IMG/VR virus record: IMGVR_UViG_3300026094_000002
DNA length: 64,000 bases
Reading direction: 5' to 3' (one strand)
DNA from: a virus
Lineage: Duplodnaviria > Caudoviricetes
Under the pieces are notes generated by a model, which was not told the origin of the DNA, ran no database searches, and saw only the letters and a program-made list of their open reading frames with translations. Positions 50,132-56,050 of the stretch are shown here, one piece after another. Both the position numbers and the translations under genes were made by a program. Every line of letters begins with the position of its first letter. Positions within the stretch are counted from its first letter, which is position 1.

Positions 50132-50458
50132 TTATACACCAAAACTAGAACCACAGCCACAAGTAGTTTCAGCATTCGGATTATCAATGACGAATTGCTC
50201 GCCCATTAATCCTTCAGTATAATCTATTCTTGCACCTTCGAGATATTGCATGCTGAAGAAATCAACAACAACTTTGTATTCTTCGTTAAGATCAAATTCC
50301 CAATCGCCTTCATCTTGGTCTTCTACAAGTGCAAAGCCATACTGGAATCCAGAACACCCACCACCCTCAATAAATGTTCTTAACTTGAGATTAGGGTTGT
50401 CTTCTTCTTTGAGAATTTCAACTATTTTGGAACGAGCATTGTCGGTAATTTCAATCAT
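50132..50458 (-). CDS. A-type Fe-S cluster carrier (HesB/IscA/ErpA family)
   Basis: GGGCSGFQY and CGCGSSF motifs. Confidence 0.95.
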   Translation of the reverse strand: MIEITDNARSKIVEILKEEDNPNLKLRTFIEGGGCSGFQYGFALVEDQDEGDWEFDLNEEYKVVVDFFSMQYLEGARIDYTEGLMGEQFVIDNPNAETTCGCGSSFGV

Positions 50459-50495
50459 AACAATATTTATAAGGATATAGGAACGAAGTGTAAAA

Positions 50496-50761
50496 TCAGC
50501 CCGTTCTGTTTACAGGTGGGCCAGACCCAGAGCGACTAAGCAGCTAGTGCGAAATCCTCAGAATAAAAATCGTCATTTGCGACTATTTTAGTTTGCTTCT
50601 ACGATCGGGTAACCCCAATCCTAACGGCTTCAGCATTGCCGATTCTCCACGATGCTTCGTTCTGCTCCGTCGAAACTGTTTCATCCCCATAGTTGGTGGA
50701 GATGCCCGGTACTGCCCCGGGGTCCGCAACAGCGTCCCATCGCTTCATCAAATTCTTAATT
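50496..50761 (-). ncRNA. ssrA: Circularly permuted two-piece tmRNA, alphaproteobacterial type
   Basis: Minus strand: T-arm CCCGG-GGCAGTA-CCGGG, CATCTCC-ACCA (CCA end 50694), 5-nt spacer, GGGGATG..TTTCGAC (G1 at 50688, G3.U pair), tag ORF 50580-50536 ANDDFYSEDFALAA*. Confidence 0.92.
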
Positions 50762-51953
50762 AAATATATTTATGTTGTTTATTGCCATCATTATGAAGTA
50801 TTTTGTTTGCAATGTCAATAGCAGTGTATGCACTTAGAGTCCAGCCTAAATGCCCGTGGCCTGTATTATACCATATATTGGAATTCTTCTTGCTCTGCTT
50901 GACAATAGGCATCATGTTCGGTGTCATTGGCCGAAGACCTGCCCACGGAACAACACTTTCTGTATTCATTTGTGGAAATAACTCTTCTGTCCAATCAACC
51001 AATGGCTGGACACGATGTTGGAGAATATCGCGGTTATATCCATTAAATTCTGCTGTACCAGCGGCACGGAAGCGAGACTCGCCCAGTCGGGAACTAACAA
51101 TTTTTGTTTCATCATCAAGCAAACTAGTCCATGGACTATTTCCCGGTTCATTAACAGTAATAGAATATCCTTTTACAGGATAGATTGGCAAGTTATCACC
51201 AATAAGTTTAGCAATGTCACGACTTCCAGTGCCAGCACAAATGACTACTGGTCCTTGCTTTTGGAATAGTTCTAATGAATCCTTGTCAACTGTTTCCTGA
51301 ACAAATTGAACGGCATAATGTCTTTCTAAGCAACGTGCAAGGTTTGTACAAAACTTGTGAATATCACCTGTAAAATCTTCTTCTGTGTAAAATCCACCGA
51401 CAATAGAGCGTCTAGAATTTTGTAGTTCCGGCTCAATAGAAAATACTTCTTCTGAGGTAATTTCATTACGAGCAAGCCCAGCCGACCGATAAATTTTGTT
51501 AGTCAGTCTTGCACTCTGTAAATCTTTCTCATTAGAATAGATGTGCATTATGCCTTGTTTTACACAGTCAAAATCAATTCCCTCACGCTCGGCAATATTT
51601 TTGTAAAGATCGTGTGCTTCAATTGCCATCTCGCAAGTATGGTGTGTATTTTCTTTTCTGTTTGGAATGTGACTTAAAAATTTTGCAAACCAAGAATACT
51701 TGTGAAGTGACGGTGCGGGATTGATTTTTAGCGGTGCATCTTTTCGAAACATCCACTTAGCACCTTTTGCTACATTGTGCCAACTATTCCATACTTCTGA
51801 GTTTGATGCACTTAACTGCCCACCATTTGCATATGATGTTCCCATTCCCGAATATCTTTCTTGATCAACCACAAGAACATCGTAACCTGAACGTGCAAGA
51901 TAATATGCTGTAGTAATACCAGTTATTCCAGCACCGATGACCGTAACTGTCAC
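50760..51953 (-). CDS. FAD-dependent D-amino acid dehydrogenase (DadA-like)
   Basis: VIGAGITG, TSYANGGQ, YPVKGYS, WAGLRPMTP, NTGHGHLGWT. Confidence 0.88.
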   Translation of the reverse strand: MTVTVIGAGITGITTAYYLARSGYDVLVVDQERYSGMGTSYANGGQLSASNSEVWNSWHNVAKGAKWMFRKDAPLKINPAPSLHKYSWFAKFLSHIPNRKENTHHTCEMAIEAHDLYKNIAEREGIDFDCVKQGIMHIYSNEKDLQSARLTNKIYRSAGLARNEITSEEVFSIEPELQNSRRSIVGGFYTEEDFTGDIHKFCTNLARCLERHYAVQFVQETVDKDSLELFQKQGPVVICAGTGSRDIAKLIGDNLPIYPVKGYSITVNEPGNSPWTSLLDDETKIVSSRLGESRFRAAGTAEFNGYNRDILQHRVQPLVDWTEELFPQMNTESVVPWAGLRPMTPNMMPIVKQSKKNSNIWYNTGHGHLGWTLSAYTAIDIANKILHNDGNKQHKYI

Positions 51954-52581: not shown

Positions 52582-54129
52582 TTAGTATTTTGATTTAGGT
52601 ATTTTAAATAATCTTTCTTTATATTTTCTGGATATATCTTCTCTTTTTGATACAAGGGAATGCCAATCAAAAGTTTTTATTGTCTTGTTAAAGGTGTGTT
52701 CTAGATCAACGCCAGTTATACATGCGTAAAATGCGGATAAACTGCTGATTTTTTTCTCAGCGACATTATTTCCTTTAACGATATAATGGTCAGCTAGATG
52801 GATACATTCAGTTAAGCATGTGTGTTGATTCTCCCATCTATAAGATTTTAAACTTTGATCCCATTCTAATAACGTGTACCCATATTGTGAGTAATTTAAC
52901 TCTATTTTACTTAAAAATTTTTTTTGTAGAGGCCCTATCATTAGTGGAAATATGAGCCAGCTATCCAATCCGCTTTCTCCAGCAACTAACATATCCCCAG
53001 TTTTTTTCATGCTCTCTACTGGTTCTTCTGGGAGTCCAAAGATAAATGTACCATGGAGGGAGACACTGTTTCCATATTTGTTTTTAATATATTTTACGGT
53101 GTCAAACATTTTATCTCTATCACCCCCCTTGCCGATTAACGAAGAAGTTTTTTTGTTTAGTGTTTCGATTCCAAAGTGACAGGCACGGAGTCCGCTATCG
53201 AACAATTTGTCAATGTATTCTTTATGTGCTGTTAATAAATCTAAGCGTATATATGCCCAATATTCAAGTTTAAACGGAAGTTCTTTAGAAATCTGATATA
53301 TTAACTCGATTTTTTCAATGCTGTCGTTAAAAGTATCATCACTAAAGATGTACCTAGTAATGCCAAAATTTTCATAATGGTAAATGAATTCTTTTAATAG
53401 TATATTTTTTAATTTAATGAAATCATTTTTTTTCTTTCCATTTAACGGATATGAACAAAACGCACAATTAAAAATACATCCTCTAGAAATTTCAGTTACT
53501 AATGACTCGTTATCTAATAATAAATCATTTTCATGAAAAAGCATTGGGGTTTCAGAAAAATTATATCCCTCGGCTTTGGCATCATCTATTACTATAGATT
53601 TGTACAAACTCTTCTTGGCGTTTTTTAATGGTTCGTTTTTTGACAAATGATTGGCTAGATTGACAGCAGAGTTGTCTGCGTATCCTATTATAGTGTAGTC
53701 AAAATATTTAATATAAGGCAACACTTGTGCATCAGGTCCACCTAATACTAGTTTACAGTTTTTGTTAAGTGTTTTAATTAAATTAATAATTCTGCTATTA
53801 AATTCTATACCATGTGGCAATAGTGCACCGGGCACTTTTTCGCCAAAACGAATCCCACCGCTCTCCCATTGATTGTCATTATCAATAGTGTTTTGTTGTG
53901 AAATATCTTTATAAAAAAAGGTATTAAATCCAACAAATAATGTATCAGCATCGATAAAGTATTTTAGTGCTTCTTCTATTTCATCAAGTGAAAAAGTATG
54001 TAGAAAATCAATAACTTGTACTTTATAGCCACTATTTCTTAATGCTGCCGCTACTTTATATGGGCCCAATGTTCTAGACAAAAAGACTTCATCAACATTA
54101 TCATTGAGCAATAGAATATTTTTAGTCAT
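52582..54129 (-). CDS. Cobalamin-binding (class B) radical SAM protein, putative methyltransferase
   Basis: N-terminal LGPYKVAAAL..VIDF..LGGP B12-binding-like domain; EISRGCIFNCAFC; FSDDTF; HFGIET; FIFGLP. Confidence 0.88.
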   Translation of the reverse strand: MTKNILLLNDNVDEVFLSRTLGPYKVAAALRNSGYKVQVIDFLHTFSLDEIEEALKYFIDADTLFVGFNTFFYKDISQQNTIDNDNQWESGGIRFGEKVPGALLPHGIEFNSRIINLIKTLNKNCKLVLGGPDAQVLPYIKYFDYTIIGYADNSAVNLANHLSKNEPLKNAKKSLYKSIVIDDAKAEGYNFSETPMLFHENDLLLDNESLVTEISRGCIFNCAFCSYPLNGKKKNDFIKLKNILLKEFIYHYENFGITRYIFSDDTFNDSIEKIELIYQISKELPFKLEYWAYIRLDLLTAHKEYIDKLFDSGLRACHFGIETLNKKTSSLIGKGGDRDKMFDTVKYIKNKYGNSVSLHGTFIFGLPEEPVESMKKTGDMLVAGESGLDSWLIFPLMIGPLQKKFLSKIELNYSQYGYTLLEWDQSLKSYRWENQHTCLTECIHLADHYIVKGNNVAEKKISSLSAFYACITGVDLEHTFNKTIKTFDWHSLVSKREDISRKYKERLFKIPKSKY

Positions 54130-54241
54130 CTAATTATTTAACATTAATATTTTTTAGTAATTTTTAAACCTGATAATATTAAACACGCTGACTTTAGATT
54201 ATATTTTTCTCAAAAATATGCCATCTCATGTCTTTTGATGG

Positions 54242-54342: not shown

Positions 54343-54897
54343 TTATTTGCGACAGGTATCTGCTAAACCTTTTAATAGTGCAGAAGATGGTATTTGTCCC
54401 GGGTGGTTTTTCTCTCGTTGCCATTTCCCCTGTATGCCATATGCAAGAGCCTCTAACGTCCCTTTACAATATTTGCTATTATAGAATCCATTTACTTTTT
54501 GCATAAAGTGAACTAACTCATGAACAAGTATGTGACGGGTATCCCAATCTCTTACACTAAAATTCGTATCAAAATACATTGTGTTCTTACCAGCATGATA
54601 AAGGGCAGCAATATTACTGTTGTTTATTTTCTGTAAATCTTTTTTGGTTTGGTTTTTTGGATCTGGGTCAATACCATAGAATCGTATTGCCATTTCTTCT
54701 CGTGATATTTTTTTAATATTTGGTAATTCTTCTCCATTGTAGTCTAAAAATGTTTCAGAACTAATCCATTCAACATGCTTTAGTACAATTTCTTGGCGTT
54801 GTTGTGTATCAACTTGATGAATTAAAAGTGAAAATATTATTACTATTATAGTAAGTGAAATGTATTTTAAAACAATGGAAAACGTATTATTATGCAC
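54343..54897 (-). CDS. Membrane-anchored zincin-like protein (HExxH)
   Basis: N-terminal hydrophobic helix; LVHELVHFMQ..EALAY; GTG start. Confidence 0.65.
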   Translation of the reverse strand: MHNNTFSIVLKYISLTIIVIIFSLLIHQVDTQQRQEIVLKHVEWISSETFLDYNGEELPNIKKISREEMAIRFYGIDPDPKNQTKKDLQKINNSNIAALYHAGKNTMYFDTNFSVRDWDTRHILVHELVHFMQKVNGFYNSKYCKGTLEALAYGIQGKWQREKNHPGQIPSSALLKGLADTCRK

Positions 54898-54962
54898 CGA
54901 TCCGCTCTCATTTTGAGTATTTAGTGCGTATAAAAAAATTGAACTGAATGCGTAAATAAAAT

Positions 54963-55074
54963 GAGGACATCACATGGGAGCGGACATGTGATGTCCTCGG
55001 GAAAACAACTGCAATCAGGAGCGGTAATTGCAGTTGGCGTTGACTACCGGCTCGGTAATCAGATGCTCGTTTTT
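54963..55074. ncRNA. Candidate three-hairpin small RNA with GGAGCGG (+) / CCGCUCC (-) loops
   Basis: Perfect 14-bp and 10-bp stems sharing the loop 7-mer, plus a third 9-bp stem; intergenic; strand unresolved. Confidence 0.6.
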
Positions 55075-55077
55075 ATT

Positions 55078-55290
55078 TTAACTAAAATATTTGTTTAACA
55101 TCTCTAGTTTGTCATCGTAATCGGCAATTTCAGCCAATTCTTTTTCAATCTCTTCTAAGATATCACCAGAACCCTCGCCAGTACCAACTGGATTTTCTAA
55201 CAGAACTTCTACATTAGCACGGTGCTTTTCAATGTGTCCGACAAAGTGGGCTTCAGCAGATTTGAAAATTGTATCTCTGAGATTTTTCAT
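55078..55290 (-). CDS. Small acidic hypothetical protein (70 aa)
   Basis: HIEKHRANVEVLLENPVG pattern recalled from marine myovirus hypotheticals; not searched. Confidence 0.7.
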   Translation of the reverse strand: MKNLRDTIFKSAEAHFVGHIEKHRANVEVLLENPVGTGEGSGDILEEIEKELAEIADYDDKLEMLNKYFS

Positions 55291-55339
55291 TAATAATAAC
55301 CTATGTTTTCTAAGAGGTATTTAGATAATATAAACCTAA

Positions 55340-56050
55340 TTATAATAATTTTATGAGTGAATTTACTGTTTTGTCTAAATTGCCAAAATTAAAAACGTGT
55401 ATATCAAATTGATTATCCAACTTCTTAACGAATTTGGCTGTATTGAAACCAGAACAAGAAAGATATTTGACTCCAACAACATTAGGAATTATTTCTCGGG
55501 TAGTACGAGCAATACCACAGAGTTTAATGAATTTCAACAATTCTTTTGCAGTACAATTGCTTGGGACACCAACGATTGTTTTTTGATCAAATTGTTTTAA
55601 CAGAGAAAGATTCAAACAAATCTGTGTAATGCCACGGGCAAACTTGGTATATTTGGTTTCGGTTACAGAATCATGCGTTTCGTGTTGAGGATACACTCCA
55701 CATAAAAAATTAAAACCATATTCTTTATCTTTGAGGTCTTTAAGCAAATCAAAGGCATTTCCATAACAGTTTCCATATTTTCTACTGCCCCCAATGATTA
55801 AAACATCTTTAACCCCAAGGTCAACAAATCGATCACAGTTGTCATATAATTCTTTTTTGTTTTTTAGATTGCGAGCGGCAATATGTGGGATAATTTTTAT
55901 TCTTGAATTCTGTCGGCGAAGATTAGAAATAGCGGTTACTGTCTCAGAGAGTCGTGTTCCCGGAAGGTGAGTAACACTTACAGAGTCAACATTTGAGAGG
56001 ACATTTTGGGATAGTTTTTGTTTTGGCGTTTGTTCAACACTTATTTTCAC
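55340..56050 (-). CDS. Methylenetetrahydrofolate reductase-like (MetF family) flavoprotein, short form
   Basis: VSVTHLP, IPHIAARN, VKDVLIIGG, GVYPQHE, ITQ, VGVP follow the MTHFR barrel pattern. Confidence 0.6.
   Translation of the reverse strand: MKISVEQTPKQKLSQNVLSNVDSVSVTHLPGTRLSETVTAISNLRRQNSRIKIIPHIAARNLKNKKELYDNCDRFVDLGVKDVLIIGGSRKYGNCYGNAFDLLKDLKDKEYGFNFLCGVYPQHETHDSVTETKYTKFARGITQICLNLSLLKQFDQKTIVGVPSNCTAKELLKFIKLCGIARTTREIIPNVVGVKYLSCSGFNTAKFVKKLDNQFDIHVFNFGNLDKTVNSLIKLL

Follow-up and report, generated by a model that had tools for sequence, protein, structure and literature searches.

A Three-Hairpin Element With a Fixed Core in Two C-Rich Loops, Very Probably a New Regulatory RNA, in an Uncultured Giant Aquatic Phage

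A three-hairpin element of ∼125–135 nt (roughly 130) was found on the minus strand of a large phage genome, downstream of a gene for a 70-aa acidic protein. The comparative signal for the element is unusually clean, as nearly all of its stem pairs have been replaced among relatives while a five-base core has stayed fixed in two loops, and the element very probably represents a novel regulatory RNA of phages. Supported by covariation, it defines a new small RNA family without a counterpart in Rfam. The reading preferred here, with a probability of about one half, is that of an anti-Shine–Dalgarno-loop regulatory RNA formed by the 3′ end of the 70-aa mRNA; where the transcript begins and ends, its late timing, the mechanism of pairing and the identity of the targets are what we infer. 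To our knowledge, regulatory RNAs have seldom been described for large lytic or uncultured environmental phages, and comparative support exists for almost none of them.

Source and Genomic Position of the Element

An IMG/VR virus record of 194.5 kb, estimated to be 56% complete, contains on its minus strand the window, i.e., the whole stretch of 64,000 nucleotides that was analyzed. The window is A+T-rich (G+C content of 36.7%), and its DNA showed weak similarity to genes of pelagiphages and cyanophages. The window was present in DNA runs labelled as lake water, aquatic and soil metagenomes, and salt-lake and brine runs contained only a small share of it. The source is an uncultured giant aquatic phage, and all copies of the element come from a narrow clade of such phages. 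The phage encodes a permuted tmRNA of the alpha type (50445–50801, minus strand; Rfam 99 bits; tag ANDDFYSEDFALAA), which suggests that its host is an alphaproteobacterium.

The element is located in a 180-nt gap between two minus-strand genes, all the flanking genes being on that strand. The upstream gene (55078..55290) codes for the 70-aa acidic protein, which matched phrog_1811, a group of unknown function, with a value of 1.9e-22; no Pfam family above the cutoff was found for this protein, and DUF1127 was likewise absent from its Pfam matches. The downstream gene (54343..54897) was assigned to DUF6647 (Pfam PF20352, 2.8e-6), and its translation contains the motif HELVH of the HExxH type.

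Anatomy of the Three Hairpins

Read 5′ to 3′ on the minus strand, the element begins with an unpaired segment (55062..55077), in which the model-fitted alignment described below (A3) revealed a conserved GAGCA (plus-strand positions 55064–55068). This GAGCA, present in almost every copy, is the complement of the loop core GCUC; self-masking, a pseudoknot contact or a processing signal are its possible roles. A pseudoknot of the 5′ GAGCA with loop B or C, for which 4–6 bp are possible, was examined and not adopted, its covariation being inconsistent. Hairpin A (55041..55061), recognized by folding and in the alignment, has a mostly conserved stem of 8–9 bp, with double changes at three pairs of the helix, and a loop that varies in sequence as well as in length (AGC, ACU, GGGCU, AAAA and AUAAA). 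Hairpin B (55006..55036), supported by covariation, consists of a 12-bp stem and a 7-nt loop YYGCUCC followed by U, the loop in the window being CCGCUCC (55018–55024). It is separated from the third hairpin by a pyrimidine-rich linker (54999..55005), which reads UUUUCCC in the window and UCCUUCC, ACUCCCCC or CCUUUCCC in relatives (alignment A3) and was predicted to be unpaired with a probability of ∼0.9 or higher.

Hairpin C (54963..54998), supported by covariation and by a terminator scan, has a stem of 13–14 bp and an 8-nt loop NYYGCUCC. In the window, this loop (54977–54984) reads UCCGCUCC on the minus strand and GGAGCGGA on the plus strand, and the two arms (54963–54976 and 54985–54998) match at 100% over 14 bp; no better perfect short-range inverted repeat is present in the 64-kb window. 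The element ends in a U-rich tail (54953..54962; AUUUUAUUUA in the window), a run of ∼5–8 U being found in every relative. The motifs in the loops of B and C are carried by two similar-sized hairpins, with ∼41 nt between the motifs.

The original prediction had placed three hairpins in this gap, numbered 1 to 3 from the plus strand (C, B and A, respectively), and its account of the structure was accurate. Hairpin 1 is perfect over 14 bp, hairpin 2 is perfect over 10 bp on the plus strand and reaches 12 bp on the minus strand with a U.G pair allowed, and the C.A mismatch of hairpin 3 (55044/55058) becomes a U.G wobble pair on the minus strand. Folding in comparison with 200 shuffles gave z values of −5.12 for the plus strand and −6.15 for the minus strand, and on both strands none of the 200 shuffles folded as well. 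The heptamer GGAGCGG, the plus-strand form of the shared loop sequence, occurs three times in the window vs. 1.15 expected, a number reached by 10 of 100 shuffles, and its count alone is not significant; the significance of the loop motif lies in its placement in loops and its conservation in relatives.

Covariation of the Stems and Conservation of the Loops

In a plain MAFFT alignment that was not fitted to the structure (A2), double compensatory changes were observed at 21 of the 33 consensus pairs. In A3, which comprises 13 copies and is biased towards the model it was fitted to, 99.1% of the 429 pair cells were canonical, as compared to 86.7% with shuffled partners and 26–48% with partners slid by 1–3 columns; the covariation score was 0.573 vs. 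0.301, and the observed values were reached by 0 of 500 shuffles. As the copies come from one narrow clade with ∼6–7 independent variants, these counts refer to cells and not to independent events. Double compensatory changes were found in 12 of 13 pairs of hairpin C and in 6 of 12 pairs of hairpin B, whose U.G wobble is kept in 11 of the 13 copies. Strain variants within two DNA runs (X3 and X4) gave the same picture: C>T at 55012 is accompanied by G>A at its pairing partner 55030, and a fourth version of the stem of hairpin C is present with its loop intact.

The loops behave differently from the stems. Pairwise identity of GCUCC in loops B and C was 1.0 at all 10 positions, as compared with 0.70 in the stems, 0.66 at third positions of the codons in the neighboring 70-aa gene and 0.41 in loop A, and both loops were predicted to be unpaired. 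The original prediction had been staked on conservation of the loop sequences among relatives, and it withstood this comparison. Loops that remain fixed on freely changing stems are evidently read by something.

This bears on a rival explanation of the element, namely, a mere tandem-hairpin terminator that also acts as a barrier to 3′-exonucleases and whose loops are conserved incidentally, through a DNA-level signal or short divergence. Hairpin C with its U-run is indeed a textbook intrinsic terminator, and the element is positioned at the end of a transcription unit, the next genes having promoters of their own. However, neither terminators nor stabilizers need loops of 7–8 nt with a fixed sequence; the pairs of hairpin C have been turned over almost completely and its loop core never, and the same core recurs in hairpin B. 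A palindromic signal at the DNA level is ruled out by the G.U pairs of the helices, as it would not tolerate the 37 such positions described below. An element that only terminates and protects the transcript is therefore considered quite improbable.

Orientation of the Element, Promoter and Terminator

The helices of the aligned copies contain 37 G.U cells when read on the minus strand vs. 2 on the plus strand. Reading the plus strand turns these 37 cells into A.C mismatches and lowers pairing from 99.1% to 90.9%. A terminator scan made a call on the minus strand only, where hairpin C (14 bp, 7 G-C pairs) is followed by AUUUUAUUU; a G+C-containing stem with a U-run directly after it is the arrangement of an intrinsic (Rho-independent) terminator. 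Upstream of the 70-aa gene, the motif TAAATA, which is the core of the T4-type late promoter, is present on the minus strand at 55318..55323, 27 nt from the ATG, and the same spacing was observed in 12 of the 13 loci. Genome-wide, TAAATA was found within 60 nt upstream of 46 of the 236 ORFs as compared to ∼5 expected, and the copy at 55318..55323 is, by analogy with T4-like phages, the probable start signal of the element-bearing transcript. The G.U asymmetry, the terminator with its U-run and the conserved TAAATA together settle the strand: the RNA is minus-sense, in the orientation of the genes, with the order promoter motif, 70-aa gene, element and terminator. One of the two readings offered in the original prediction was a minus-strand, anti-Shine–Dalgarno-like RNA with C-rich loops that ends at hairpin 1 and a U-tail; this reading fits every test that was run.

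The other reading was a plus-strand decoy RNA, whose GGAGC/GGA loops would capture CsrA-type proteins, C-rich small RNAs of the host or the anti-Shine–Dalgarno end of 16S rRNA. Such an RNA would fold well (z = −5.1), its loops (AGGAGC or GGGAGCGGA) would resemble those of GGA-loop sponges, and the window does contain the TAAATA before hairpin 1 (54953–54958) and the T-run after hairpin 3 (55070) on which this reading had been built. However, pairing on that strand drops to the value given above with conserved A.C mismatches, the TAAATA proposed as the start signal is kept in only 2 of ∼7 variants, the T-run is 8 nt away from the stem, and neither a gene nor a conserved promoter points in that direction. 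Rfam families of the CsrB/RsmZ type gave no match, and the GGA motif of such sponges would be on the very strand that the G.U asymmetry and the terminator disfavor. A plus-strand decoy is accordingly regarded as very improbable.

A sigma-70-like promoter within the end of the 70-aa gene (ATGACA-18-AATATT) was also evaluated and set aside; it is weak (9 of 12 matches) and inseparable from the coding constraint. With no convincing internal promoter, a discrete small RNA would need to be generated by processing. Downstream of the terminator, a further TAAATA (54918..54923, minus strand) precedes the GTG start of DUF6647 by 20 nt and is kept before the homologous gene in contigs L003, L261 and L262; the DUF6647 gene appears to have a late-type promoter of its own.

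In the whole genome (G000), the spacing between TAAATA and the start codon was bimodal. The motif ends 5–8 nt before the ATG in 23 ORFs, e.g., at 54130–54135 (5 nt upstream of the 52582–54129 gene), and the TAAATA at 50459–50464 is 5 nt upstream of the 50132–50458 gene. Such a distance leaves no room for a Shine–Dalgarno sequence and implies leaderless late mRNAs. In ∼20 ORFs, 17–28 nt separate the end of the motif from the start codon, and AGGAG-type sites are present in this interval.

Association of the Element With the 70-aa Gene

A search with the 70-aa protein retrieved the IMG/VR contigs L003 and L004 and the metagenome contig L206, and protein homologues of 79–90% identity led to ten contigs from ENA, JGI and Logan (L261–L267, L269–L271) plus the truncated L272. 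In related phage contigs, 13 homologous copies of the element were found, each directly 3′ of the 70-aa stop codon. The element follows every 70-aa homologue of at least 79% identity whose contig runs past the stop codon. Homologues of ≤68% identity are without it; what comes after them is either a simple terminator or a next gene that overlaps, and no match to the covariance model was obtained there. The element is thus linked to the 70-aa gene, and it stays with this gene where the downstream gene differs, the latter being DUF6647 in some lineages. In L264–L267, DUF6647 has given way to a gene for a dCMP-deaminase, which is preceded by a separate TTGACA promoter, and the element is retained. 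The DUF6647 gene is a neighbor of the element and not an obligatory partner.

BLAST, a hairpin scan and the covariance model revealed no second copy in the genome, so the element is single-copy. Loose pattern scans gave mostly G+C-rich chance matches, and among the matches listed, L206 was the only true extra copy left after filtering. None of 39 matches in bacterial or archaeal genomes, nor L273 or L274, fits the covariance model R1. A match of the 17-nt 5′ pattern in L260 was discarded as a chance match inside a sugar-nucleotide gene, and BLASTN of the element against GenBank phages returned nothing meaningful.

A different arrangement was observed in the more distant relatives L005, L007 and L012–L014. 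Here, the stretch ∼60–140 nt downstream of the 70-aa homologue contains a plain terminator and, after it, the promoter TTGACA-N17-TACAAT. A short 5′ hairpin whose loop includes CCUC is located directly upstream of a ribosome-binding site (GGAG) and a start codon TTG.

Comparison With Known Small RNAs

The comparison with Rfam that the original prediction had proposed was made with the whole window at gathering scores and with 54700–55300 at E ≤ 10; for the element, it gave chance-level matches only (snoRNA, miRNA and RybB), the RybB match reaching 14.8 bits vs. a cutoff of 40.

The closest analogue is the cuckoo/CcsR group (RSs0680, ar14, NfeR), small RNAs of Alphaproteobacteria that consist of 2–4 adjacent hairpins with highly variable stems (PMC4615179; PMC8034643). 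Every hairpin loop of the cuckoo RNAs carries CCUCCUCCC, the loops being 9–27 nt long, and the precise function of these RNAs has been called still unresolved (PMC4615179). [quoted passage not shown] Similar to these, the phage element combines adjacent hairpins with variable stems (three, with 21 of 33 pairs covarying), a repeated C-rich loop motif resembling the anti-Shine–Dalgarno sequence, a position in the 3′UTR of a small gene and a terminator hairpin. However, loops B and C of the phage element are only 7–8 nt long and contain YGCUCC(U), and loop A contains no such motif; the Rfam covariance models for cuckoo/CcsR did not match; the protein encoded upstream is the acidic phrog_1811 protein and not the DUF1127 protein that neighbors the CIN1 subgroup; and the element is a single module in single copy in a phage genome. 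Hence, the element is cuckoo/CcsR-like in design and not a member of the group, as the defining features tested fail, and the resemblance put forward in the original prediction holds as an analogy and not as an assignment. Cuckoo-like architecture in a probable alphaproteobacterial phage suggests that anti-Shine–Dalgarno loops have arisen by convergence or have been borrowed.

In the UCCC-loop RNAs of Firmicutes (RsaE/RoxS, RNAIII hairpins), unpaired C-rich motifs have been proposed to act as seeds for pairing with ribosome-binding sites rich in G (PMC4615179). The phage element resembles these RNAs in having C-rich motifs in loops and linkers and a terminator as its last hairpin; in contrast, there is no sequence or structural homology, and the phage motif has a fixed G (GCUCC), which points to targets more specific than a generic Shine–Dalgarno sequence. 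Another type of loop pairing is represented by c4 of phages P1 and P7 and CI of P4 (Rfam C4), phage antisense RNAs whose loops pair with complementary sites in a ribosome-binding region located later in the operon. With these, the element shares its phage origin and its structured nature, and a loop match to the downstream ribosome-binding region was observed in the window (7 nt) and in L261 (6 nt) only; it differs in that it has no Rfam C4 match, its complementarity to the leader is not conserved, and its context is not an immunity region.

The phage-encoded small RNAs named in the available text of a review are mostly from temperate phages and prophages of enterobacteria and vibrios (PMC12197685). 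They are regulators that act in trans and, like the present element, are encoded by phages and have a terminator hairpin followed by a U-tail; the three-hairpin architecture with a repeated loop was not found among those described in that text (PMC12197685).

Proposed Mode of Action and Candidate Targets

In the preferred reading, the RNA would constitute the untranslated 3′ end of the 70-aa mRNA, which is probably transcribed from the late-type TAAATA motif, and would possibly be released from this mRNA by processing. Hairpin A would have a structural or protective role. Hairpins B and C each display the invariant YGCUCC(U) in a loop of 7–8 nt, with the pyrimidine-rich single strand between them, and hairpin C with the U-tail would act in transcription termination too. 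The loops would base-pair with purine-rich ribosome-binding regions of the AGGAGC(R) type in phage or host mRNAs, and this pairing would block 30S binding or alter mRNA stability, comparable to the C-rich-loop small RNAs of alphaproteobacteria and Firmicutes. The CUCCU within GCUCCU is also present in the anti-Shine–Dalgarno end of 16S rRNA, owing to which pairing with ribosome-binding regions is the most likely mechanism; the part of the core able to pair with a generic Shine–Dalgarno sequence comprises 5 nt only. Confirmed targets would reveal a phage tuning translation late in infection, a question that is sharpened by the apparent leaderless messages. In its most far-reaching form, the proposal would be that a cuckoo-like RNA from a late promoter masks AGGAGC-type sites of host or selected phage mRNAs and in this way favors the leaderless late messages of the phage; this is judged to be decidedly unlikely, and if true would amount to an RNA-based takeover of translation initiation by a phage.

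Across the 194-kb record, loop matches of at least 7 nt were obtained for no more than two ribosome-binding regions, those of the DUF6647 gene and of a 113-aa gene. The former contains GAGCGGA (54901..54907, minus strand), 3 nt before the GTG, which is complementary to UCCGCUC of loop C. The original prediction had recorded this heptamer as an echo of the loops; the sequence is present, and at the RNA level it is the complement of the loop, not its repeat. In the 113-aa gene (G000 45253), AGGAGCG is opposed to loop B. Two matches among ∼236 regions are roughly what is expected from chance plus the Shine–Dalgarno bias. GGAGC was not enriched at ribosome-binding regions (2 of 236), and C is not favored after GGAG in phage leaders. 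Both the DUF6647 leader and the distant 113-aa gene are leads only, as candidate targets.

For the DUF6647 leader, a cis-acting, operon-internal regulator comparable to P1 c4 or P4 CI could be envisaged, in which the loops shut off the downstream gene on read-through or neighboring transcripts. The exact complementarity over 7 nt in the window agrees with this, as does L261, where the sole lineage-specific change in loop C, from CCGCUCC to CUGCUCC, is accompanied by a leader with GGAGCA (6 nt). However, in L003/L004 and L262/L263, no contiguous leader–loop match of at least 6 nt was found despite the presence of the homologous gene, the element persists in L264–L267 where this gene has been replaced, the DUF6647 gene has its own TAAATA after a strong terminator, and the Rfam C4 family did not match. 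A cis-acting role is for these reasons held to be unlikely. The pairing with the leader suggested in the original prediction is thus found in some lineages only, and, being absent from others and from those in which the gene is replaced, it is not the sole or defining function of the element.

For the 113-aa gene, homologues from two other phage populations were compared with the loops: the site AGGAGCAA in sample 3300026114 fits loop UUGCUCCU of the same sample, and the site AGGAGCGA in ERZ27265936 fits loop UCGCUCCU of the same sample; this agreement across lineages involves 1–2 informative positions each and assumes that short contigs of the same sample belong to one phage. The homologue of the 113-aa gene in L323 is without the site. 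The start of the 113-aa gene, which is outside the window, can fold into an 8-bp hairpin (G000:C1 45225–45262; ∼426–463 in L315), whose loop contains the Shine–Dalgarno sequence AGGAGCGAA and whose 3′ arm contains the AUG. Both this hairpin and AGGAGC were found again in the homologues L316, L321, L324 and L325, and L322 has AGGAGC without the hairpin. A loop–loop kissing interaction with this hairpin was considered and set aside because the TAAATA is so close that a late transcript would probably start inside the 5′ arm.

The loops could instead be read by a protein. The element would then be a structured 3′UTR whose two identical loops dock an RNA-binding protein of the phage or the host that controls the fate of the 70-aa mRNA; candidates are a repressor acting as a dimer, a factor for processing or stability (such as CcaF1 for the CcsR precursors) and a ProQ/Hfq-like chaperone. 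Presentation of one loop motif twice, ∼41 nt apart, on variable stems is a pattern of sequence-specific loop recognition; the element is tied strictly to the upstream gene and to no downstream gene, and the search for RNA targets yielded none that was statistically convincing. On the other hand, no RNA-binding protein is evident nearby, and the 70-aa protein itself is strongly acidic (∼16 D/E vs. 8 K/R), which sets it apart from known RNA binders, and Pfam gave no RNA-binding domain for it. Moreover, the anti-Shine–Dalgarno likeness of the loops and the pyrimidine-rich linker would have to be a coincidence. Protein docking is seen as rather unlikely; it is the main rival of the anti-Shine–Dalgarno-loop RNA, which remains the preferred reading.

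Variability and Neighboring Genes

The DUF6647 protein has a hydrophobic N-terminal segment in addition to the HELVH motif, and owing to these two features it may be a membrane-anchored zinc peptidase. Searches found no relatives of this protein in viral contigs; the homologue in L003 was recognized by direct translation. Several strain variants of the region 54700–55400 coexist in the DNA runs X3 and X4, which are lake-water/aquatic metagenomes from different studies. Depth in these runs spikes over 55204–55275, which shows that this part of the 70-aa gene is common to many other phages. Further along the minus strand, the gene for a B12-binding radical SAM protein (52582–54129) is missing from the syntenic region of L003, L004 and L261; in L262, a radical SAM gene is present after a 146-aa gene. 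The radical SAM gene looks like mobile or variable cargo between conserved neighbors.
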